In this document: in pieces, positions 11,891-40,630 of the stretch
How positions within the stretch are numbered: the first letter of the stretch is position 1
Layout of the letters: each line of letters begins with the position of its first letter
Virus record (IMG/VR): IMGVR_UViG_3300045988_007834
DNA: 40,630 nucleotides
Strand: one strand, 5' to 3'
DNA from: a virus
Position numbers and translations under genes: made by a program
Notes under the pieces: model-generated
Seen by the model: only the letters and a program-made list of their open reading frames with translations
What the model was told of the DNA's origin: nothing
Database searches by the model: none

Positions 11891-12112
11891 ATGGACAAAA
11901 TTATGAAACGGCTTTCGAATCTGCTGAGCGTGAAGTCGCTGGTGACGCTGCTGCTGACGGTGGTGTTTACGGTGCTGGCGCTGCGGGGTGATATCACAGG
12001 GAAAGACTTCTTGACGATCTTCCTGATGGTCATCACGTTCTATTTCGGCACGCAGTCGCAGAAGGCACAGGACGCGATGGATGCGAAGGGTGATAGTGAT
12101 GGTACCAATTAA
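11891..12112 (+). CDS. Holin (two TM)
   Basis: ATG 11891 follows AAGGGAG. Two TM segments (LVTLLLTVVFTVLAL, FLTIFLMVITFYF) with a charged C-tail. Its end overlaps the amidase start. Confidence 0.55.
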   Translation: MDKIMKRLSNLLSVKSLVTLLLTVVFTVLALRGDITGKDFLTIFLMVITFYFGTQSQKAQDAMDAKGDSDGTN

Positions 12113-18959: not shown

Positions 18960-19011
18960 CTGCGAAGAGTACAATAATATACTTCCAAATATTTTAGAGT
19001 ACAAATACATC

Positions 19012-19040
19012 TTGAAATTATAGAACGAATGTTTTATAAT
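19012..19040 (+). promoter_or_regulatory. Sigma-70-type promoter (rightward)
   Basis: TTGAAA, 17 nt, TATAAT, upstream of small ORF 19098..19208. Confidence 0.55.
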
Positions 19041-19097
19041 TACGCCACTGCCTCACACGAATCAGCCGACACGAACGAAGGACGAAGGAGCAATGGA

Positions 19098-19208
19098 ATG
19101 AATGATAGAACATGGCTGGAACAGGAGATCGCGCGCTTAATGCGGTGCGCAACGGATGAGGAACTTGACCTCCTCTGGCGGTTTTTGAAAACGATGGTCA
19201 ACAAATAG
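19098..19208 (+). CDS. Small hypothetical protein (36 aa)
   Basis: Counted by hand: ATG preceded by AAGGAG, 37 codons to TAG, followed by a perfect hairpin. Confidence 0.3.
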   Translation: MNDRTWLEQEIARLMRCATDEELDLLWRFLKTMVNK

Positions 19209-19223
19209 CATACATAGAGAAAT

Positions 19224-19251
19224 GGGCACAGGGTTTATTTCCCCTGTGCCC
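19224..19251. terminator. Bidirectional hairpin terminator between convergent genes
   Basis: Perfect 10-bp stem GGGCACAGGG / CCCTGTGCCC with T-runs on both strands. It overlaps the repressor stop region. Confidence 0.6.
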
Positions 19252-19606
19252 ATTTTTCTGCGATTTCGGCAAGTATCTCCCATTCTTTAACGCCGAGCTG
19301 GCTAACGATTGATATAAAACGTTTCCTTGCTGCGTCATCCGGGTCGTTCATAACTTTCCCGAGGAACTCTGCGATTTCCTGATTTTGCGTCAACTCCTTC
19401 ATCATTTCACCCTCTCCGGTGCGAAGCCATGTTTCGTTGACATTAAACTCTTTACAGATAAGCCGTAAAAATGGCTCATTCGGTTCTGTTTTTGCACCTT
19501 CAAGGTTTGTGATTACACCCCGCGTTGTTCCAAGCCGTTCTGCAAAATCAGTCTGAGATAATCCGGTTTTTTTTCGGATGGCTTTTATGCGTTCATTGAT
19601 GGTCAT
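19235..19606 (-). CDS. CI-like repressor (XRE-family HTH, no peptidase domain)
   Basis: The N-terminal MTINERIKAIRKKTGLSQTDFAERLGTTRGVITNLE is a classic HTH_3. It is transcribed divergently from the early lytic operon. Confidence 0.75.
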   Translation of the reverse strand: MTINERIKAIRKKTGLSQTDFAERLGTTRGVITNLEGAKTEPNEPFLRLICKEFNVNETWLRTGEGEMMKELTQNQEIAEFLGKVMNDPDDAARKRFISIVSQLGVKEWEILAEIAEKWAQGK

Positions 19607-19624
19607 TTAGGACACCTCCTAAAA

Positions 19625-19735
19625 CTATTATACACAATATAAATGTATTGTCAATACAAAAATATTTATTCAAAAGCGCAAAAATGTATTGACAAAACAA
19701 AAATAAGGGTCTATAATGTAGTCACAATACATCAA
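19625..19735. promoter_or_regulatory. Genetic switch: divergent consensus promoters with three operator-like 15-mers
   Basis: Leftward promoter: TTGACA (19654..19649), 16 nt, TATAAT (19632..19627). Rightward promoter: TTGACA (19689..19694), 17 nt, TATAAT (19712..19717). Operators: the perfect palindrome TGTATTGTCAATACA at 19644..19658, a 13/15 copy at 19685..19699 and a 12/15 copy at 19717..19731. Confidence 0.7.
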
Positions 19736-19773
19736 GCGACATAAAAATGTCGTATGGAAGCGAGGTGAATCAA

Positions 19774-19914
19774 ATGCCCGAGGAATCCAAGCAGGCTCTA
19801 AAAACCGTCGGTGTTGACGTTGACAAGCTCGACGCCGAGCAGATTCAGAGATTGAGCGACATTGCGTATGGGATGCTTCTTGTAAAAGAAGCGCAGCCGA
19901 AGAAGGAGGAATAA
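19774..19914 (+). CDS. First early-operon ORF (46 aa, hypothetical; Cro position)
   Basis: ATG follows GAGGTG, downstream of the rightward promoter. Counted as 47 codons. Confidence 0.4.
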   Translation: MPEESKQALKTVGVDVDKLDAEQIQRLSDIAYGMLLVKEAQPKKEE

Positions 19915-19916
19915 GG

Positions 19917-20132
19917 ATGGAACGTATGACGCTGGAAGAACTAAAGCAATCGGACGCGCCGATCATTACGCCGGAGATGGCTTCGTGGTTTTTGGGGTGT
20001 AATCCCCACGAGCTGCGGCTTCGGGCGCGGCAGAACCCCGCCGGACTTGGATTCCCGGTGTGCTGCATCGGGAGCCGCGTAAAAATACCGAGAAAGCCGT
20101 TTCTGGCGTTTCTCGGGGAAAAGGAGGAATGA
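19917..20132 (+). CDS. HTH_17 / excisionase-family DNA-binding protein (Xis or Cro candidate)
   Basis: LKQSDAPIITPEMASWFLGCNPHELRLRARQ...GSRVKIPRKPFLAFL resembles excisionase-type winged HTH proteins. RBS is GAAGGAGGA. Confidence 0.5.
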   Translation: MERMTLEELKQSDAPIITPEMASWFLGCNPHELRLRARQNPAGLGFPVCCIGSRVKIPRKPFLAFLGEKEE

Positions 20133-20135
20133 AAG

Positions 20136-20279
20136 ATGATCTCAAAGAGAGAATGGTACGCCGCGCTGCGGCGGATGCTCAAGCGGCCGACGGCGTACTT
20201 TCCGCAAACACTGCGCCTGATGCGGGCGCTGAGCATCCCAGTCGAGGAAATGCGGGCGGCAATCAGCTACCCGTGGTAA
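20136..20279 (+). CDS. Small hypothetical protein (47 aa) sharing its first 13 aa with CDS 21296..21475
   Basis: ATG lies 8 nt after AGGAGG and reads MISKREWYAALRRMLKRP.... The alternative long frame (ORF 20060) is Ala/Gly-rich and looks off-frame. Confidence 0.45.
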   Translation: MISKREWYAALRRMLKRPTAYFPQTLRLMRALSIPVEEMRAAISYPW

Positions 20280-20302
20280 AGAATAAATGGAGGAACGAAG
20301 GA

Positions 20303-20887
20303 ATGAAAGTCAAAATTACATTTTTGGAGCCGGTGCTCGGGACGTGGCCGAGCAACGAGAACGTCGCCCGAGACTTCATCGCATCGAAGTCGCCGGACGC
20401 AAGCACGATTGAGGACGAGATTGCGGCGCTCGGTGTGGACGCGGTGGCCGATAAGGGAATGACCGTTTTCCCCCGCGTAGACGGCACCCCTGTCTTTTAC
20501 GACTACCAGATCAAGGGGTTTTTCAAGGACGCCTGCGGGATGCTGACGCGCGTGAAAACCACCAAGAGTAGCGCCCTCAAAGCGTACAAGAAGATCATCG
20601 ACGGCCTGATTTTCGTGGAACCCCGGCACATCCCTATTGCGGTCAACGGTGAAATCGGTGACTGCCAGCGCCCCCTTCGGGCGCAGACGGCACAGGGCGA
20701 ACGTGTCAGCCTTGCGAACTCCGAGGAAATCCCGGCAGGCAGCACGATCGAGTTTGAAATTCTCCTGTTTGACGAAAAGGCACACCGCGACGCCGTCCTC
20801 GAATGGCTTGACTATGGACGGATGCGCGGTATCGGCCAGTGGCGCAACTCCGGCAAGGGGCGGTTCCGGTATGACGTGATCGACTGA
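20303..20887 (+). CDS. Hypothetical early protein (194 aa) with a RAMP/Cas6-like C-terminal glycine-rich loop
   Basis: ATG follows GGAGGAACGAAGGA. It starts with a strand-like N-terminus MKVKITFLEPVLG and ends GIGQWRNSGKGRFRYDVID. Confidence 0.6.
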   Translation: MKVKITFLEPVLGTWPSNENVARDFIASKSPDASTIEDEIAALGVDAVADKGMTVFPRVDGTPVFYDYQIKGFFKDACGMLTRVKTTKSSALKAYKKIIDGLIFVEPRHIPIAVNGEIGDCQRPLRAQTAQGERVSLANSEEIPAGSTIEFEILLFDEKAHRDAVLEWLDYGRMRGIGQWRNSGKGRFRYDVID

Positions 20888-21295
20888 TAGCAAGGGCAGT
20901 GATGGCCATGAATAGCTTTGCGGCGGCGTGGTAGAGCTGTGTTCGGCAGATGGACAGCGATGGCATGGAAATGCTGTGAACCGCGATGCCACGGCATGGC
21001 ACAGCAACGGAGAGCGAAGCGTTGAATCGCAACGGCAAGGATATGAATCGTAGAGCAAGGGAATTGCATATCGGCGCGTTAGTTAGCGGAGAAACGCCAT
21101 GCTTGGCGACGGCAAAGGAGAGCAATGCCACGAATGGCAATGGAAACGATGAGCGCCGCACGGATTCGCTATGGCACAGTAAGGTGTTGAACCGCAGGGG
21201 CATAGGAACGCAACGAACCGCTTCACAATGCCAAGCAAAGGAATGGCTAAGCAGCGCTAAGCAATGCGAAGAATACACAAAAAGGAGGAAGGAAT
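20888..21295 (+). repeat. 408-bp non-coding tract rich in ATGG / TGGCA / TGCCA words and short inverted repeats
   Basis: No credible ORF. I counted 18 ATG triplets (9 as ATGG). It holds TGCCA-N5-TGGCA (20987..21001), TGCCA-N4-TGGCA (21126..21139), CGCCA-N4-TGGCG (21095..21108) and the palindrome ATGGCCAT (20902..20909). There is also a roughly 20-nt tandem pair, GAATCGCAACGGCAAGG and GAATCGTAGAGCAAGG. Confidence 0.6.
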
Positions 21296-21475
21296 ATGAT
21301 CTCAAAGAGAGAATGGTACGCCGCATTGCGGCGGACGATGAAGCGCGTGGCCCTGATTCTGGGGGGCGTGTTCATGATGGCGGCGTTCTTTTACTGGCTT
21401 GTGTGGGGCTTTCGCCTCGACGCGGCTGTGATGGCGACAATGTCTGTCGCGCTGGTGGGGTACGGGATGGCATGA
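21296..21475 (+). CDS. Small membrane protein (59 aa)
   Basis: ATG follows AGGAGGAAGGAAT. MISKREWYAALRRTMKRVALILGGVFMMAAFFYWLVWGF... has two hydrophobic segments. Confidence 0.5.
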   Translation: MISKREWYAALRRTMKRVALILGGVFMMAAFFYWLVWGFRLDAAVMATMSVALVGYGMA

Positions 21476-21588
21476 TGGGATGGATCTGTTGTCTCGGCTC
21501 CCGGCTCAAGGCGGCGTGGAAAGCGCTGGAGGAAGCCGCAGAGAGGCAGAGAAACTACTGGGGCGCGGAGGATGACAAATGTTTGTGA
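21472..21588 (+). CDS. Small hypothetical protein (38 aa)
   Basis: ATGA overlap with the upstream stop. Reads MMGWICCLGSRLKAAWKALEEAAERQ.... Confidence 0.3.
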   Translation: MMGWICCLGSRLKAAWKALEEAAERQRNYWGAEDDKCL

Positions 21589-21815
21589 AGCTATGCGAGG
21601 GATGCCCACGCGAAGAGATCTGCGAGGAGCGCATTTGTAAGTCCAGCTGGCAGCGGGAATGGCTGTGCAGCTGGGACAACATCCGCCGTTCAGGGGCAAA
21701 GAAAAAGGCTGCCCGCGTGGACAGACGCGAACAGCCAGAGGAAGACAAACCGATCAGCCATCGGGAATATGTCTTTAGTCACATTTTAACAGCTGGATGG
21801 AGGGATGTCAAGTGA
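21579..21815 (+). CDS. Cys-rich hypothetical protein
   Basis: RBS GGAGGA. Reads MFVKLCEGCPREEICEERIC.... Confidence 0.45.
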   Translation: MFVKLCEGCPREEICEERICKSSWQREWLCSWDNIRRSGAKKKAARVDRREQPEEDKPISHREYVFSHILTAGWRDVK

Positions 21816-22048
21816 CGCAGTGTGAAAAGGTGCTCCGGCATCTCCGGACGTTTGGTTCGATCACGCCAATGGAGGCGATGCAGGAATACGGCATCATGCG
21901 GCTTGGGGCCCGGTGCTGGGATCTGAGGAACAGCGGTATCCCGGTCGTGAGTGAGATCGTGGCCGGAAAGAACCGGTTCGGCGAGACGACGCACTATGCG
22001 AAATACAGATTGGAGGACGGCGACGGCAATGTTTCCGAGAGAACTTGA
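21812..22048 (+). CDS. Winged-helix DNA-binding protein (phage wHTH family)
   Basis: GTG 21812 follows GGAGGG. CEKVLRHLRTFGSITPMEAMQEYGIMRLGARCWDLRNSG...YAKYRL is a recurrent phage wHTH pattern. Confidence 0.55.
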   Translation: MTQCEKVLRHLRTFGSITPMEAMQEYGIMRLGARCWDLRNSGIPVVSEIVAGKNRFGETTHYAKYRLEDGDGNVSERT

Positions 22049-22265
22049 GTTTGACCGGCAGCAGCAAAGCCCGGTCGGCTATGACATCTTCGGCGATGAG
22101 GTCTACAAGGGCGACACCGTGTACTGCGGCGACGAGGGCATGCTCTGCGACCCAGGCGCGGACAACTTCGACTCGAGCAATCTGATCATGTCCCTTTTGG
22201 TGCAGCAGCTGGGGACGCGGTACATTTTGGAGCAGTTGGGATATGAGAAGCGCGTGATCGATTAA
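22029..22265 (+). CDS. Hypothetical protein (78 aa)
   Basis: ATG follows GGAGGACGGCGACGGCA. Short overlap with the upstream gene. Confidence 0.4.
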   Translation: MFPRELEFDRQQQSPVGYDIFGDEVYKGDTVYCGDEGMLCDPGADNFDSSNLIMSLLVQQLGTRYILEQLGYEKRVID

Positions 22266-22275
22266 GGAGGACAAT

Positions 22276-22920
22276 ATGTTGAAATCATTTAACGAGCTGG
22301 TGCAGCTCGACGTGATGCCGTACTGCGACAAGCGGAAGGCAAAGGACGAAAACGGCAAACAGATCGAAGTGCCCTATCTCTCTTGGGGCAACTGCAAGAT
22401 GCTGCTGCATGAGAACGGTGCGGAGAGCGTCTACTTCACGCCGCGCACCAATGCGGCCGGGAGCTATGTGTTCTGCCACTACGCAACGGCGGACAAAAAC
22501 AAGCGGAGCACCGGGTGCTATTTCGTGTCCGTCGATATTCATATTGATGATAAGACGTACACGATGGACTATCCGCTGCTCAACGGTGCGCTGGTGGTCT
22601 ATGCGGACACGCTGAACCAGCTCCGCATTTCCAACGCCCACGCCCGAGCCTTTGTCAAGGGGGTGGCGATTTACACCGGTCTTGGGTTTAAGCTCTGGAC
22701 GGCGGAGAAGGACACGGACGGCGGCGTGGATGACCTGAGCACCCACAACATCTTCGCCATCAAGCAGCGCGTGGAGCAGCTTTTGACGCAGAAGATGCAG
22801 GACGGGTACACCGTGGAGGGCATTTGTAAGGGACTTGGACTGAATAAGAAGCAGTTTGATTCCATTCTCAAAATGTTCGATCAGGTCAACACCTTCGAAC
22901 AGATGCTCAAAAAGCTATGA
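22276..22920 (+). CDS. Rad52/Sak-type single-strand annealing protein (DUF1071-like)
   Basis: YLSWGNCKMLLHENG... and FVKGVAIYTGLGFKLW resemble Rad52-like phage SSAPs. It is paired with a YqaJ exonuclease gene. Confidence 0.6.
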   Translation: MLKSFNELVQLDVMPYCDKRKAKDENGKQIEVPYLSWGNCKMLLHENGAESVYFTPRTNAAGSYVFCHYATADKNKRSTGCYFVSVDIHIDDKTYTMDYPLLNGALVVYADTLNQLRISNAHARAFVKGVAIYTGLGFKLWTAEKDTDGGVDDLSTHNIFAIKQRVEQLLTQKMQDGYTVEGICKGLGLNKKQFDSILKMFDQVNTFEQMLKKL

Positions 22921-35877: not shown

Positions 35878-37248
35878 ATGAAAACATATCAGGATTTTTT
35901 AGAGATCGCCGAAAAGGGCGAACAGGCGCGGATGGATTTTGTGATATCTGCGATTGATTCGTACAAAGCAACGGACTTGTATAAGACGGCACTGACAGCT
36001 CGGGAATATGATGAGCACAGAAACGTGACAATCATGAACTATCAGAAGCTCCTTTATACGCTGTCCGGGCAGGCGATACCGGACAATTATTCCGCAAACT
36101 ATAAGCTCCGCAGCAATTTCTTTTCGGCGTTTGTAACGCAGGAGACGCAATATTTGCTCGGGAATGGAGTAACGCTGAAAGATGCAAGCCACAAGGAACG
36201 GCTCGGGCCAACGTTTGACAATCGACTTCAGGACATCGGGCACGATTCGATTGTTGCTGGTGTGGCCTATGGCTTTTGGAACCTCGACCACCTTGAAACG
36301 TTTACAGCGCTCGAGTTTGTGCCACTACTCGACGAGGAAACTGGCGCTTTACGCGCGGGAATCCGATGGTGGCAGGTGTCCAGTGATAAACCGCTCCGGG
36401 CGACGCTTTTTGAAGTCGATGGATTCACGCAGTACATCCGCCGGAAGGGGAAGCAGATGGAAGTGCTCAAGCCGAAGCGCGGCTATGTGGCGGTTGTGGC
36501 GTCCTCGGTCGTCGATGGGATGGAGATTATGGAATACCGAAACTATCCCGGATTCCCGGTAATCCCGATGTATGCGAATCGCGCGAAACAGTCTGAGCTT
36601 GTCGGAATGCGGGAGAAAATCGACTGTTATGATCTCATTTCTTCCGGATTTGCAAACACCGTGGATGAAGCGTCTATTATTTATTGGACGATCTCCAATG
36701 CTGGCGGCATGGATGAAATCGATATGGCGAAGTTTAAGGATTCCATGCGCAAGCTCGGCGTTGCGATGGTCGATGAAGATGGGGCGAAGGTTGACGCCCA
36801 CACGCTGACAGTTCCGGTCGACGCGCGAGAATCGCTTCTGAATCGCCTGAATGACGATCTGTACCGCGATGCGCAAATGCTCGATGTGAAATCGCTTCAG
36901 GGCGGACAAAAAACAGCGACGGAGATTCGCGCGGCATATCAGCCGATGGACAACAAGGTTGATCAGTTTGAATATTGTGTGCGGGACTTCCTGCACCTTC
37001 TTTTTGAGATTGTCGGAATTGATGATGAGCCGTCCTTCGTCCGGTCGAAGATCGTCAACCAGCTCGAAGAAACCCAGATGGTTCTTATGGCGGCGGCATA
37101 TTTGGATGATGAAACAATTCTGAATAAGCTGCCGTGGTTGACGCCGGAGGAGGTTGAGCAGATCATGCAGCGAAGAGAAAACGCGGATATTTCCAGAGAA
37201 GACTTTGACGACGGAGGTGGCAACGATGAAATCCAAGATCAGGAATGA
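35878..37248 (+). CDS. Portal protein (SPP1 gp6-like)
   Basis: 456 aa immediately after terL, with an acidic C-terminus. Confidence 0.8.
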   Translation: MKTYQDFLEIAEKGEQARMDFVISAIDSYKATDLYKTALTAREYDEHRNVTIMNYQKLLYTLSGQAIPDNYSANYKLRSNFFSAFVTQETQYLLGNGVTLKDASHKERLGPTFDNRLQDIGHDSIVAGVAYGFWNLDHLETFTALEFVPLLDEETGALRAGIRWWQVSSDKPLRATLFEVDGFTQYIRRKGKQMEVLKPKRGYVAVVASSVVDGMEIMEYRNYPGFPVIPMYANRAKQSELVGMREKIDCYDLISSGFANTVDEASIIYWTISNAGGMDEIDMAKFKDSMRKLGVAMVDEDGAKVDAHTLTVPVDARESLLNRLNDDLYRDAQMLDVKSLQGGQKTATEIRAAYQPMDNKVDQFEYCVRDFLHLLFEIVGIDDEPSFVRSKIVNQLEETQMVLMAAAYLDDETILNKLPWLTPEEVEQIMQRRENADISREDFDDGGGNDEIQDQE

Positions 37249-37546
37249 TTTGGCCGTGACTGTCGATGGTGTCGATCTCACAACGATTTCGAAACCAGAG
37301 TTCTACGTCCGTCAGGCAAATAAGTTTTTTCAGTACACCCCTGAAATTGTTGATGAAAAAACGATGGTTGTCCGCATCCCGTTTGAGGATGCAATGCAGC
37401 TGACACCGAAGAAAATTGTGAATGGACTGAAATCTCCGCCGTGCATGGTACAATTCGCATTTGCAAGGGAAAATGGCACACCGGACTATTCAGAAAAACT
37501 TGAGGTTGACGTGGAAGACCTCCTGAAAACGGAGGGGTACCAATGA
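37226..37546 (+). CDS. Hypothetical structural-module protein
   Basis: ATG follows GGAGGTGG. It overlaps the portal stop. 106 aa. Confidence 0.45.
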   Translation: MKSKIRNDLAVTVDGVDLTTISKPEFYVRQANKFFQYTPEIVDEKTMVVRIPFEDAMQLTPKKIVNGLKSPPCMVQFAFARENGTPDYSEKLEVDVEDLLKTEGYQ

Positions 37547-37728
37547 TCAGACTGAAAGTGAAAGGTGAACCGGTAAGGTTAAAAGTCGAACAGGCTAAAA
37601 CGGTTCCGGTATCAGGCGGCGGCAACGTCTCATCTGCGCAGATCAACACCATTGTAGTCCTCGATCGGGCGGAATATGACGCGCTGGCCGTCAAGGACGC
37701 AAAGACACTGTATCTGATTCGGGGGTGA
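37543..37728 (+). CDS. Small hypothetical protein with a fibre-like C-terminal motif
   Basis: IVVLDRAEYDALAVKDAKTLYLI resembles the ends of phage fibre/collar proteins. Confidence 0.4.
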   Translation: MIRLKVKGEPVRLKVEQAKTVPVSGGGNVSSAQINTIVVLDRAEYDALAVKDAKTLYLIRG

Positions 37729-37732
37729 CGGA

Positions 37733-37876
37733 ATGATCACAGTCGGAGAAGAACAGCTCAAGGAGTTGTTTGTCGGCGAGATGGGCATCAAGAATGCCTG
37801 CATCGGCGAAGAATCCATCTATACCCGCCCGGGCGGATATTTATACATCGAACTGAGCGAAAAGAAAGGGGCATAA
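37733..37876 (+). CDS. Small hypothetical protein (47 aa)
   Basis: Counted as 48 codons. Fills the gap. Confidence 0.3.
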   Translation: MITVGEEQLKELFVGEMGIKNACIGEESIYTRPGGYLYIELSEKKGA

Positions 37877-37879
37877 CCT

Positions 37880-38542
37880 ATGGCAAGTTTTTTCAATCTA
37901 ATTCTTGATACGCTTGCACCGTCTGGGTTGACACTGAAGCTCAACAACGGCGCGACGTATGCAACCAGCAACACCGTCACCGCAACGATCACGCTGACGG
38001 ATGAAACCAAGACCGGCTACCAAATGAAGCTCTGGGGCATCAAGGCGGCGGCAACGGAAGAGGACGCATCGTGGGAAACCTTCGCGGCCAGCAAGTCTAT
38101 CGTTCTGACGGAAGGCGATGGTCTGAAAACCGTACATATCAAGGTGCGGGATGACGTCGGCAACGAAACGGCTGCGGTCACAGCGTCTATCACGGTCAAC
38201 ACTGCGGTTCCGGTGGTCACGATCACTGGCCCCGACAAGACCAGGATCTCCAAAGTCTCCGGCTTCGACACCTGCGCGTTCTCCTTCACCTGCGACGTGG
38301 ACTTCGAGGAATACACGGTGCGTGTTGTGCCGAGCACCAGCAGCCTGCACGACGCCGGTACGCAGATTCCCACTACTGGCGGTTCCAGCAACACCAGCGG
38401 CACGGCTGGCGGCTACAAGAAGGCCACTGCGATTGATGTCACCATCAAGGGCACTGACCTTGCGACGGCATCCTCCGGCGACGGTACGAAGATCATCAAG
38501 GTCTTTGTGAAAAACGCCGCCGGGACTTGGAGCGTGGCATAA
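37880..38542 (+). CDS. Tandem Ig-like (beta-sandwich) domain protein
   Basis: Two similar ~100-aa modules, ending GNETAAVTASITV and KNAAGTWSVA. Confidence 0.55.
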   Translation: MASFFNLILDTLAPSGLTLKLNNGATYATSNTVTATITLTDETKTGYQMKLWGIKAAATEEDASWETFAASKSIVLTEGDGLKTVHIKVRDDVGNETAAVTASITVNTAVPVVTITGPDKTRISKVSGFDTCAFSFTCDVDFEEYTVRVVPSTSSLHDAGTQIPTTGGSSNTSGTAGGYKKATAIDVTIKGTDLATASSGDGTKIIKVFVKNAAGTWSVA

Positions 38543-38919
38543 TGGCCGCGCCGGGACTGACGTTCACCATCACGGGGACTAAGATTTCGGCAGTCTCCGG
38601 GTACGATTCCATCACCGTCAAGTTCTCGTCGGACATCGCCTACACGGCCTTTGAATGCCGCGCGACGAAAACCGGCGAGGACTGGGGGCGAGGCAAAGGA
38701 GCGCTCATTGCGTCCTTTTCCCAGACCCCGGCGGGGACGGAGCGAACCTTTGAGGTCTACGACGATTTTCTCTTGAGCGGTGACGGAGAATATCGAATCT
38801 CCCTCTACGCACAGGGCGCGGATGGAAGTTGGAACGACAACTATGGTTTTGTGCCGTCCGGCACGACCAAGACCATGCTGACGGCAGACGGCAAGGAATT
38901 TCTCTGCATGAAGGAGTGA
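38542..38919 (+). CDS. Ig-like domain protein (paralogous in fold to the previous gene)
   Basis: TAATG overlap with the upstream gene. The pattern ISAVSGYDSITVKFSSD...YRISLYAQGADGSWN parallels 37880..38542. Confidence 0.5.
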   Translation: MAAPGLTFTITGTKISAVSGYDSITVKFSSDIAYTAFECRATKTGEDWGRGKGALIASFSQTPAGTERTFEVYDDFLLSGDGEYRISLYAQGADGSWNDNYGFVPSGTTKTMLTADGKEFLCMKE

Positions 38920-38923
38920 TTTT

Positions 38924-39121
38924 ATGGCAGACCAGTACAACAGTGCGCACACTGGCGCAGAGATCGATCAGGCGGTGTCTGACGTTCAAAACAACAAGGC
39001 CGCATGGAGCGCGAAGGAGCTGCCCGCGGTCACTGCTTCGGACAATGGGAAATTCCTGCGTGTTGTGTCCGGTGCATGGGCGGCTGTAGAGATCGCAAAC
39101 GCGAATGGAGGTAGCTTCTGA
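38924..39121 (+). CDS. Small fibre-associated protein
   Basis: HTGAEIDQAV and LPAVTASDNGKFLRVVSGAWAA are recurrent in gut-phage tail-fibre N-termini. Confidence 0.45.
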   Translation: MADQYNSAHTGAEIDQAVSDVQNNKAAWSAKELPAVTASDNGKFLRVVSGAWAAVEIANANGGSF

Positions 39122-40245
39122 TGGCAGAGCTTTTGACGAACACAACCGACCTGACAAAGGTTGCATCAGCTATCCGGGAGAAAGGCGGCACATCTGACCC
39201 GCTGGTCTACCCGGACGGATTTGTGACAGCGATTCAGGCCATTCAGACCGGCACGGAATTGAAGATCGTCGTGTCTGTGACATCTGGTGCAACTGTTACC
39301 GCGACGAAAGGAAGCAAGGTCGTGAGCGGCACATCAGTCAATGGAACGTGTACGCTTACTGTGCCGGAGGCCGGTACATGGAGCGTATCTGCAAAACTGG
39401 GAATACAGACTTCTGACACGCAAATGGTTAGTCTTGCTGATGAATACTCGGCAACGCTGTTGTTCTTGGGACCGTTAAATGACAACGATTGGGAGACCAT
39501 TCGTTCTGTCTCAGATGCAGGACAAGGCGCGAACTATTGGAGTGTTGGAGACCGCAAAGCGGTCACACTGAACGGCACAGTTGGTGCACTGACACTGTCT
39601 AACTTCACGACGTATGCGTTCATCATCGGATTCAACCATAATTCCAGTCTTGAGGGTACAAACCGCATCCATTTCCAACTTGCGAAGACCGCCCTCTCCG
39701 GCGGTACGGACGTTTGCTTCTGCGACAGTTCCTATAACTCGACCGTCTCGGTGACCGGCTATTTCTCCATGAACAGCAGTCAAACAGCCGTCGGCGGTTG
39801 GGAAAGCTCACAAATACGTACAAGCATTTGCGGAACGAGCCTCTCGAGCTATTCCGGGACGATTATCGCAATCATTCCTGAGGCGCTCCGTGCGGTGCTG
39901 AAATCCGTGACGAAGTACACAGACAATATGGGAAACGGAGACCCGACCGCAAGCGCAGTCACGGCAACAACAGATTACTTTTTTCTGCTGTCCGAGTACG
40001 AGGTATTCGGGAGAAACGCACGAGCAAACAGAAACGAAGGCACCAAACAAGCGCAGTACACCTATTATTCCGCCGGAAATAGCAAAACCAAGTACAAGCA
40101 CAGCGCGACAAGCACAGAAGCCGATTGTTGGTCCCGTTCACCTCTTTCGGGAAGCACCACGCAGTTCGTGCTTGAGTCCGGTCAACGCCCCGTGTTTGAA
40201 CGCGCGAACTATTCGCTCGGCTTCGCGCCCGGCTTCTGTGTATAG
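39121..40245 (+). CDS. Receptor-binding/adhesin-like protein (DUF6273-like C-terminal domain)
   Basis: N-terminal LTKVASAIREKGGTS...FVTAIQAI. C-terminal GDRKAVTLNG...GFNHN...MNSSQTAVGGWESSQIR...FFLLSEYEVFG...CWSRSP...APGFCV. Confidence 0.55.
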   Translation: MAELLTNTTDLTKVASAIREKGGTSDPLVYPDGFVTAIQAIQTGTELKIVVSVTSGATVTATKGSKVVSGTSVNGTCTLTVPEAGTWSVSAKLGIQTSDTQMVSLADEYSATLLFLGPLNDNDWETIRSVSDAGQGANYWSVGDRKAVTLNGTVGALTLSNFTTYAFIIGFNHNSSLEGTNRIHFQLAKTALSGGTDVCFCDSSYNSTVSVTGYFSMNSSQTAVGGWESSQIRTSICGTSLSSYSGTIIAIIPEALRAVLKSVTKYTDNMGNGDPTASAVTATTDYFFLLSEYEVFGRNARANRNEGTKQAQYTYYSAGNSKTKYKHSATSTEADCWSRSPLSGSTTQFVLESGQRPVFERANYSLGFAPGFCV

Positions 40246-40254
40246 GAGGGAATT

Positions 40255-40623
40255 GTGGATTACATCACATACAGACGCTTCAAGGGAAAATCTATTTCCG
40301 GCGAAGTCAACATCCCGTTCGGAACAGTCTTACAGGAACGAGGCGGGGTCCTCTATCTCGACGAAAGGCCGATCTGCTGCGTGACGAGCGAAAACGGCTG
40401 GGAGCACTTCCGACCAGACACCGACGAGGGCAAATACCGGCAGGATATGCTAGAAAAGCTCTACCGATGGTATACAAAGCACGGATGCGGCGAGGACTTT
40501 GTAGATGAGCTGTGGCCGGGACAGGAGAACGGATACTGGAGGAACCGGTTGAGAACGGTCAGCACGGAACGGTTGAAACAGATCTATTTTGAGAAATTCG
40601 GGGTGATGCCATGTATGCAGTAA
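40255..40623 (+). CDS. Hypothetical protein (its end lies in the terminal repeat; a duplicate fragment is at 1..112)
   Basis: GTG start after AGGAGGG. 122 aa. Confidence 0.45.
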   Translation: MDYITYRRFKGKSISGEVNIPFGTVLQERGGVLYLDERPICCVTSENGWEHFRPDTDEGKYRQDMLEKLYRWYTKHGCGEDFVDELWPGQENGYWRNRLRTVSTERLKQIYFEKFGVMPCMQ

Positions 40624-40630
40624 AAAAAGA
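40512..40630 (+). repeat. Right copy of the exact 119-bp terminal direct repeat
   Basis: Identical to 1..119. It contains the end of CDS 40255..40623 and the start of the CDS listed at 100..411. Confidence 0.95.

Follow-up and report, generated by a model that had tools for sequence, protein, structure and literature searches.

Within IMG/VR virus record IMGVR_UViG_3300045988_007834 (40,630 nucleotides [nt]; hereafter the window, meaning the whole stretch of DNA that was analyzed), a gene for a 194-amino-acid (aa) RAMP protein is followed at its stop codon by an array of pentanucleotide units of the form G-Y-N-N-N, and we estimate with roughly 75% probability that gene and array together make up a system of the VIPR (Viral Interference Programmable Repeat) type. 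The protein has a Cas7-like RAMP fold, the pairing of gene and array extends across the protein family, and the array keeps its strand and its five-nucleotide frame with hypervariable content in between; RNA expression, filament formation, DNA targeting, and silencing would follow by analogy with the two preprints on VIPR. Systems of this kind have been known since 2026, and the window locus is possibly a new variant, with G-Y-N-N-N units, 31-nt blocks, and no vap gene.

In two bioRxiv preprints (10.64898/2026.04.26.720920 and 10.64898/2026.04.26.720927; structure PDB 36pp), Vipr is described as a minimal RAMP encoded by phages together with flanking pentanucleotide-repeat RNA. The type II system of Escherichia phage SUSP1 comprises Vipr, vap1, and four vrRNAs, which are encoded in flanking intergenic DNA and consist of 9–16 YNNGG repeats and then a conserved tail. 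One Vipr protomer occupies each 5-nt repeat, sequestering G1, G2, and Y3 and presenting N4 and N5, which pair with double-stranded DNA and skip every third target base, and the complex silences transcription of competing phages. The preprints distinguish seven types and six families of vap accessory genes, and therefore imply one type without vap; they list the other consensuses 'NNNGG, YNNNG and NNNNG', mention stand-alone vipr genes, 'staggered' arrays, and array variation between types, count 667 catalogued systems, and propose VIPR systems as viral ancestors of CRISPR RAMPs and as a new, programmable means of recognizing DNA.

The protein has a Cas7-like fold

The RAMP gene begins with an ATG at 20303, preceded across an 8-nt gap by GGAGGA at 20289–20294, and its stop codon lies at 20885–20887. 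Searches with the single protein sequence returned nothing from Pfam, PADLOC, or the PDB sequences; the best match in PHROGs was one family of unknown function (E=0.06, not significant), and NCBIfam gave a faint match to the RAMP protein Csm4 (E=0.15, not significant). The family was resolved through profiles and structure only. It is large, with at least 7,926 clusters at 90% identity, 1,910 representatives at 50% identity (E≤1e-3), and at least 570 matches in IMG/VR. Where public sources give its proteins any name, the name is 'hypothetical protein'; in BFVD, a virus protein at 84% identity bears the name 'Cas system-associated RAMP superfamily protein'. Members are encoded, for example, by Siphoviridae sp. 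ctcMb1 (UniProt A0A8S5R426) and on RefSeq contig NZ_QUCY01000020.1 of Eggerthella sp. AM16-19.

An AlphaFold2 model of the protein (49 homologues, pLDDT 78, pTM 0.72) places its elements in the order beta1, two-helix bundle, beta, alpha1, short helix, two strands, a beta-hairpin at residues 119–143, beta, alpha2, glycine-rich loop, and beta4. Residues 2–7 form a beta-strand in the model, as a preliminary description made from the sequence alone had expected of the N-terminus, and the conserved YDYQIKGFFKD is placed at the start of RRM helix 1. Foldseek returned 94 matches in the PDB at E≤1e-3, the top ranks being held entirely by backbone subunits of about 200 residues, namely type III-A Csm3, type VII Cas7, and Cmr4 (E down to 1.2e-6, TM 0.5–0.58). 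From sequence alone, a more diverse family profile matched type VII Cas7 (E=2.4e-6) and Csm4 (E=5.4e-4). Structure and profile searches both assign a RAMP fold, so that the proposal of the preliminary description withstands the check by fold that it had set itself.

That description had started from a RAMP-like glycine-rich loop (G-loop) lying 8 residues from the C-terminus of the 194-aa open reading frame (ORF). The protein ends in ...RMRGIGQWRNSGKGRFRYDVID, and exactly 8 residues follow G186. Across 66 diverse homologues, residues G176, Q179, W180, R181, N182, G186, and F188 vary rarely or not at all, and the whole C-terminal block G-h-G-Q-W-R-N-x-G-x-G-R-F is kept with the same constancy; because of this near-invariance, the G-loop motif is no chance match. 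In the predicted thumb hairpin, R123 and R126 are invariant and R134 is present in at least 90% of homologues.

A period-5 array follows the gene

The intergenic tract downstream of the gene is 408 nt long and has a period of 5 nt, with identity z scores of 5.9, 5.6, and 4.3 at lags 5, 10, and 15 and depletion at lag 3 (z=-1.6). The 14 strongest lag-5 windows in the whole 40.6 kb lie, every one of them, inside this tract. When a cyclic hidden Markov model was run over the whole window, it called one segment, 20887–21275, with 75 anchor Gs. As a positive control, the same period-5 scanner was applied to phage SUSP1, where it recovered exactly four segments, corresponding to the four published vrRNAs. 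The array logo reads x-G(0.97)-C(about 0.65; A 0.25)-N-N with A-rich N positions, so that the anchor G is nearly invariant and three N positions are free to vary. The tandem-repeat program TRF found no CRISPR-like array in the window and did not detect the period-5 array, which is too degenerate for it. Rfam searches, run at permissive thresholds on 19000–22500 and at gathering thresholds on the whole window, found no RNA family and no hammerhead ribozyme.

The tract had been described beforehand as rich in both repeats and hairpins, and as a possible hairpin substrate for the neighboring protein. The repeats are borne out by the lag-5 signal, but the hairpins are not, as the folding energy of the tract is no better than that of shuffled sequences (z = +0.39); in place of a hairpin substrate, there is an unstructured period-5 array. 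Stop-free frames of 200–206 aa do run through the tract (ORFs 20706–21326 on the minus strand and 20986–21588 on the plus strand), as would suit a coding or decayed coding region, but they result from the G/A-rich composition of the repeat. The period of 5 with lag 3 depleted, indels of 5, 10, and 31 nt, and the lack of any conserved protein in the tract, apart from spurious antisense ORFs made by the periodicity itself, leave a protein-coding origin hardly tenable.

A second period of 31 nt overlies the first. Distances from GG to GG in the arrays peak at 31, then at 26, 36, 21, and 41, and a 6-nt unit, 'x-G-G-C/A-N-N', therefore recurs every 4–8 units; it does so most often every 6, which gives the 31-nt block. 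The 6-nt GGC unit is preceded by a partly conserved 'G-S-a-A-H', the commonest 10-mers of the array are GCAAAGGCAA and GCAACGGCAA, and block boundaries coincide with a punctuation motif, 'GC-R-A-N-GGCA' (stretch 21028–21105 in the window). Across the family, identity at lag 31 (0.392) compares with 0.397 at lag 5, with harmonics at 62 and 93. The indel spectrum of the arrays (family-wide, L001–L160) peaks at 5, 10, 26, 31, 62, and 93 nt, and among long indels 31 nt is dominant, with 67 events versus 5–6 at 30 or 32 nt; unique blocks number about 1,450. Individual cases show the same unit of change: the array of locus L202 equals that of L199 plus one clean 31-nt tandem copy, and a 77-nt deletion in L199 lies between two GC-R-ACGGCAA motifs. 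Each turn of the SUSP1 binary filament comprises six protomers according to the VIPR preprints, which may or may not be relevant to the 31-nt blocks.

These features of the array, together with the fold, bear on the preliminary assignment of the protein to Cas6-type RNA processing, under which an endoribonuclease would cut the adjacent transcript into small RNAs, for instance at 'GCAA-N-GGCA' motifs. A G-loop near the C-terminus, a size akin to that of Cas6e and Cas6f, a punctuation motif about every 31 nt that might serve as a processing site, and the presence of Cas6 structures (4ilm) among the Foldseek matches are all compatible with such an enzyme. However, the first Cas6 entry appears only at rank 35 (TM 0.31, root-mean-square deviation 12 Å), with the top ranks filled by Cas7-type chains, and the predicted protein combines one RRM with a helical bundle and a thumb hairpin, the arrangement of Cas7 and Vipr, rather than having the two-RRM fold. 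The tract has neither stem-loops for recognition nor a CRISPR-like repeat, and a conserved G recurring every 5 nt fits a protomer seated on each unit and not a single cut in each repeat. As modeled, the 194-aa protein is a Cas7-like RAMP and not a Cas6, and we regard the endoribonuclease reading as unlikely; some self-processing activity may exist.

Gene and array are linked across the family

Homologous loci (160) were collected from IMG/VR viral contigs and from GTDB genomes, mostly metagenome-assembled genomes of Oscillospiraceae, Faecalibacterium, and other Clostridia. Conserved pairing of the gene with an adjacent noncoding tract had been set as a check in the preliminary description, and the two are linked in 155 of 159 loci; only 0.5% of background windows reach an equal period-5 score. 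The tract begins at the stop codon in 145 of the 159 loci and is found just upstream of the gene in 18, and two of the four loci lacking an adjoining tract have one about 600 nt downstream. The repeat lies on the strand of the gene: 76.5 kb of it was called there, in 158 of 161 sequences, whereas the opposite strand holds 5.9 kb. Besides the RAMP gene, no neighboring gene is conserved across 156 loci, and the array is the sole other universal element. The median array across the family is 407 nt long; three IMG/VR contigs of about 60–110 kb (L057, L058, and L059) have downstream arrays of about 1.5 kb, or roughly 290 units.

The pairing also occurs well outside the gut Clostridia. Hydrogenobaculum phage 1 (KP282676), a hot-spring Aquificae phage, encodes a 256-aa relative (L198:1261–2031; hhalign probability 98%), and G-T-anchored period-5 tracts at L198:1970–2128 and 2515–2737 come after the stop codon of this relative. 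The association of protein and array is therefore either ancient or widely transferred.

The frame is conserved and the content hypervariable

In blastn comparisons, the gene aligns to 145 loci at about 80–92% identity, whereas the tract aligns to three loci and over its last 100 nt or so only. Identity to the closest of these loci is 92% over the gene and 59% over the tract, the latter against 51% for shuffled sequence. Among alignable pairs of tracts, the mismatch fraction falls from 0.166 at x1 to 0.018 at G2 and rises again through 0.079 at Y3 and 0.119 at N4 to 0.132 at N5. The identical protein recurs on further contigs, from phages that differ in their immunity regions. On one of these contigs, the gene differs at 3 of 585 nt, and the array has 24 differences in 331 aligned nt (7%) and lacks 77 nt. 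Pooled over the identical-protein contigs, 27 distinct substitutions include 11 at x1, eight at N5, four at N4, one at Y3, and none at either the 75 anchor Gs or the 13 extra Gs. The anchor Gs (0 of 75 substituted) thus differ from the N sites (23 of 223) at p=6e-5, and the rate of change in the array is 14 times that in the gene (p=1e-8). A conserved frame with variable content is the signature by which the VIPR work defines vrRNAs, although here there are three variable positions per unit and not two.

Loci carrying the identical protein and a near-identical array (L199–L208) have different repressors, and some have a Mrr_cat/NA-iREase1 nuclease gene beside the repressor. With the same module standing amid differing immunity regions, the module is conserved and the early region around it is mosaic.

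These patterns also bear on the idea that the tract acts as DNA, whether as an origin, an iteron or other protein-binding array, or phased bent DNA, and that its proximity to the RAMP gene is mere synteny. A super-period of 31 nt comes near 3 x 10.5 bp, or about three helical turns, and the tract lies near the replication and recombination genes of the early region. Against these two points, the strand asymmetry is strong and puts the repeat on the coding strand of the gene, the basic period is 5 nt and not 10–11, and the linkage holds while other neighbors vary, even where phages differ in their immunity and recombination modules. Iterons, moreover, are conserved sites, unlike the hypervariable content seen here, and the partner protein has an RNA-binding RAMP fold. 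A role as DNA is, on this evidence, very improbable.

Relationship to VIPR systems

The comparison with SUSP1 Vipr was made through alignments, a control model, and individual residues. By hhalign, the family aligns with SUSP1 Vipr co-linearly and at full length (175 columns, E=1.5e-5, probability 80%), and the profile of the family aligns with that of the SUSP1 clade over 182 columns (E=6.3e-5, probability 64%). In a search of PDB sequences, the family profile matched the chain named 'SUSP1 Vipr protein' weakly, over residues 64–192 (E=0.15; E>1 with the other family profile). A Vipr protein of the SUSP1 clade, modeled as a control in the same pipeline (pLDDT 94), shows the same order of elements, including the thumb, and retrieves the same Csm3 and type VII Cas7 entries slightly more weakly. 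In the G-loop, G-h-G-D-[W/Y]-R of the SUSP1 clade corresponds to G-h-G-Q-W-R of the window family. W180 (66 of 66 sequences) and R181 (65 of 66) are the counterparts of SUSP1 W178, which stacks on G2, and R179, which holds Y3. The equivalent of SUSP1 D177, which reads G1, is Q in 64 of the 66 family sequences, and H17, which also reads G1, falls in an alignment gap; this apparent loss of G1-reading residues would agree with repeats that have lost their first G. One of the thumb arginines may correspond to SUSP1 R138, whose placement in the alignment is not reliable.

Several observations weigh against a VIPR assignment. The homology is remote: cross-searches with hidden Markov models between the family and the SUSP1 clade at NR scale gave no matches (best E=94), the Hydrogenobaculum phage 1 protein is no bridge to the SUSP1 clade (probability 0.2%, versus 98% to the family), and in sequence the family is closer to CRISPR type VII Cas7 than to SUSP1 Vipr. 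No vap gene is linked to the family at the 156 loci. The roughly 75 units of the array form a single unbroken run, where type II has RNAs of about 100 nt with 9–16 units; the first G of GGY is not conserved in this array, it slips by +1 about every 31 nt, which the SUSP1 vrRNAs do not, and no structured tail is predicted at its 3′ end (21193–21295; folding z = -0.41 relative to shuffles). Finally, no natural target was found under any rule tried, either in a 0.9-Mb pool of related-phage DNA or in IMG/VR. In the pool, with the parse corrected and matches de-duplicated, N4N5, N4N5x1, and N5x1 with skips of 0–3 did not beat controls. When IMG/VR was scanned under the published 1-nt-skip rule, no stretch of 10 units matched exactly; the 36 8-unit seed matches are a chance-level number, of which none extends, and as matching was exact only, this is a weak negative. 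A model in which blocks present contiguous NNN to the target was also tried and set aside: it gave 28 matches versus 7 for a single reversed control, but 28 versus 18.6 ± 4.0 over 30 permutations (z = 2.4), which is not significant after multiple testing.

Since a class without vap is implied and the consensus 'YNNNG' is listed in the VIPR preprints, the locus probably falls in one of the non-type-II classes, and the window family, in gut phages, may be the most populous VIPR clade.

The similarity to CRISPR effectors could instead mean that a solo Cas7 was captured from a CRISPR system, with the protein and its repeat RNA mimicking or soaking up parts of host type III or type VII effectors as an anti-CRISPR decoy. 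RNA-based anti-CRISPRs are known in phages, the gene lies in a phage early operon, and the G-loop region resembles type VII Cas7 and Csm4 at the E-values given above. The array, however, is unlike CRISPR repeats in having a period of 5 nt and in returning nothing from TRF or Rfam, a decoy would have no need of N positions that are hypervariable within a fixed frame, and the reference Vipr is equally Cas7-like. The same architecture in hosts as far apart as Clostridia and Aquificae makes mimicry of one host system unlikely. We therefore consider a decoy quite improbable, and the anti-defence or decoy function suggested in the preliminary description is not supported, the closest characterized systems (VIPR) being RNA-guided DNA binders in phage-against-phage conflict.

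Proposed mechanism and implications

If gene and array do form a VIPR-type system, the early promoter in the lysogeny switch of the prophage would drive transcription of both, and the RAMP protein would polymerize along the array RNA with one protomer per 5-nt unit. Trp180 and Arg181 of the G-loop, with the thumb, would sequester the anchor G of each unit and the pyrimidine next to it, leaving the variable bases exposed for base pairing with a nucleic-acid target. That target would most likely be the DNA of competing phages or prophages, whose transcription would then be blocked. It is conceivable, if doubtful, that the gut-phage clade is a distinct VIPR variant with a code of its own, in which G-Y is fixed and each protomer offers three variable bases, and in which 31-nt blocks of six units, each making one filament turn, are duplicated and lost as wholes and perhaps act as separate mini-guides or as units for processing; such a rule would differ from 'GGY/NN with 1-nt skip'.

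A related module of protein plus array, beside the lysogeny switch, abounds in the temperate phages of Clostridia from human and animal guts, its protein falling into at least 7,900 clusters at 90% identity. The family amounts to a natural experiment on the code, with the residues that contact G1 apparently gone along with the repeat's first G, three positions free to vary in each unit, and arrays that grow by 31-nt blocks. Should the decoding rule differ from that of SUSP1, this would widen the design space of gapped RNA-guided recognition and provide a handle on phage-against-phage competition in the gut.

Genomic context and expression

The positions of the module and of the elements around it are collected in Table 1. 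The RAMP gene has as neighbors an integrase, helix-turn-helix (HTH) repressors, small ORFs, a winged-HTH protein, and a Sak annealing protein. There are no cas genes among them, so the earlier description of an orphan RAMP-like protein stands and the gene lies outside any CRISPR-Cas locus; also confirmed is its placement in a phage early operon, here that of a temperate phage. Between the gene for the cI-like repressor and the early operon, the region 19627–19737, in which the divergent promoters overlap three operator-like 24-nt repeats (AAATGTATTGTCAATACAAAAATA), has the sequence features of a textbook lysogeny switch. From the promoter to the array, no strong terminator was found on the plus strand, only one weak 5-bp stem at 19972, and gene and array are probably co-transcribed within the early operon, judging from this layout.

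Table 1. Positions of the RAMP gene, its array, and surrounding elements in the window.
Feature	Position	Strand	Description
cI-like HTH repressor	19235–19606	-	Beside the divergent promoters
Divergent lysogeny-switch promoters	19627–19717	both	Two perfect sigma-70 consensus sites on opposite strands, with 12/12 TTGACA/TATAAT matches
Plus-strand promoter, likely driver of the early operon	19689–19717	+	TTGACA/TATAAT consensus; putative driver role
67-nt direct repeat, left copy	20119–20185	+	82% identity to right copy; brackets gene and array
RAMP gene (vipr-like)	20303–20887	+	194-aa single-RRM Cas7-like protein
Predicted thumb beta-hairpin, residues 119–143	codons 20657–20731	+	AlphaFold strands 119–129 and 132–143; holds R123, R126, and R134
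Glycine-rich loop G176-I-G-Q-W-R-N-S-G-K-G186	codons 20828–20860	+	Aligns with the G-loops of SUSP1 Vipr (G-V-G-D177-W178-R179), type VII Cas7, and Csm4
G-Y-N-N-N array, putative vrRNA-type guide	20887–21275	+	About 75 tandem units (60 measure 5 nt, 13 measure 6 nt, and 2 measure 4 nt), grouped into ~31-nt blocks
3′ end of intergenic region	21193–21295	+	Only part of the tract aligning with other loci; includes the ribosome-binding site (RBS) of the next ORF
67-nt direct repeat, right copy	21279–21345	+	Contains RBS and first 13 codons of small ORF 21296–21475

The 67-nt direct repeat that brackets gene and array duplicates the RBS and first 13 codons (MISKREWYAALRR) of two small ORFs, 20136–20279 and 21296–21475, and its bracketing position suggests that the module was inserted or exchanged by recombination. 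As a general signature of mobility, however, the repeat was rejected, being confined to the phage lineage of the window and absent from 133 other loci. An ENA contig of the same length (L204; k119_159025, 40,630 bp) has the locus at 36042–40630, compared with about 20300 in the window. The window is probably a circularly permuted assembly of a complete phage genome of about 40.6 kb. The sole TRF match in the window is a 12-nt tandem repeat at 11938–11978 (GCTGGTGACGGT, 3.4 copies).

Comparison with known systems

Compared with Csm3 of type III-A and the Cas7 of type VII, the window protein shares the RRM core, thumb, and G-loop (TM 0.5–0.58; E=2.4e-6 from thumb to G-loop) and, presumably, the habit of tiling along a guide RNA. 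It differs from them in being encoded by a stand-alone phage gene, with no cas operon or CRISPR array, and in the geometry of its putative RNA, which has a period of 5 nt with two fixed bases per protomer, whereas CRISPR guides have 6 nt with one flipped base. The array itself resembles CRISPR arrays in that conserved punctuation alternates with variable content, in that blocks are gained or lost by recombination between motifs, and in its rapid turnover relative to the adjoining protein gene. There is no sign at the arrays of the window family that blocks are acquired from foreign DNA, and there are no adaptation genes; unlike the content of CRISPR arrays, the blocks arise by tandem duplication and subsequent point changes, as in L202 compared with L199.

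The window locus and the SUSP1 VIPR system both have a phage-encoded RAMP of about 195 aa with a single RRM and the element order beta1, helical bundle, alpha1, thumb hairpin, alpha2, G-loop, and beta4, both have the W-R pair in the G-loop, and neither is accompanied by cas genes or a CRISPR array. In both, G-anchored pentanucleotide repeats occupy flanking intergenic DNA on the strand of the gene, with a conserved anchor and hypervariable N positions. The two differ in that their sequence similarity is remote (hhalign E about 1e-5, 19–25% identity), in their repeats (G-Y-N-N-N in the window, G-G-Y-N-N in SUSP1), and in the G1 readers D177 and H17, which the window family does not conserve. 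The array is continuous in the window family, whereas SUSP1 has separate vrRNAs of about 100 nt, each with a pseudoknot tail. The window array also has 6-nt 'GGC' units and 31-nt blocks that come and go whole, its module has no vap gene, and its host is a temperate phage of gut Clostridia in which the module sits beside the lysogeny switch. Rfam found no hammerhead ribozymes at the window locus. With other VIPR types mentioned in the preprints, the window locus shares both stand-alone genes without vap and a repeat consensus, YNNNG, that is a cyclic permutation of G-Y-N-N-N.

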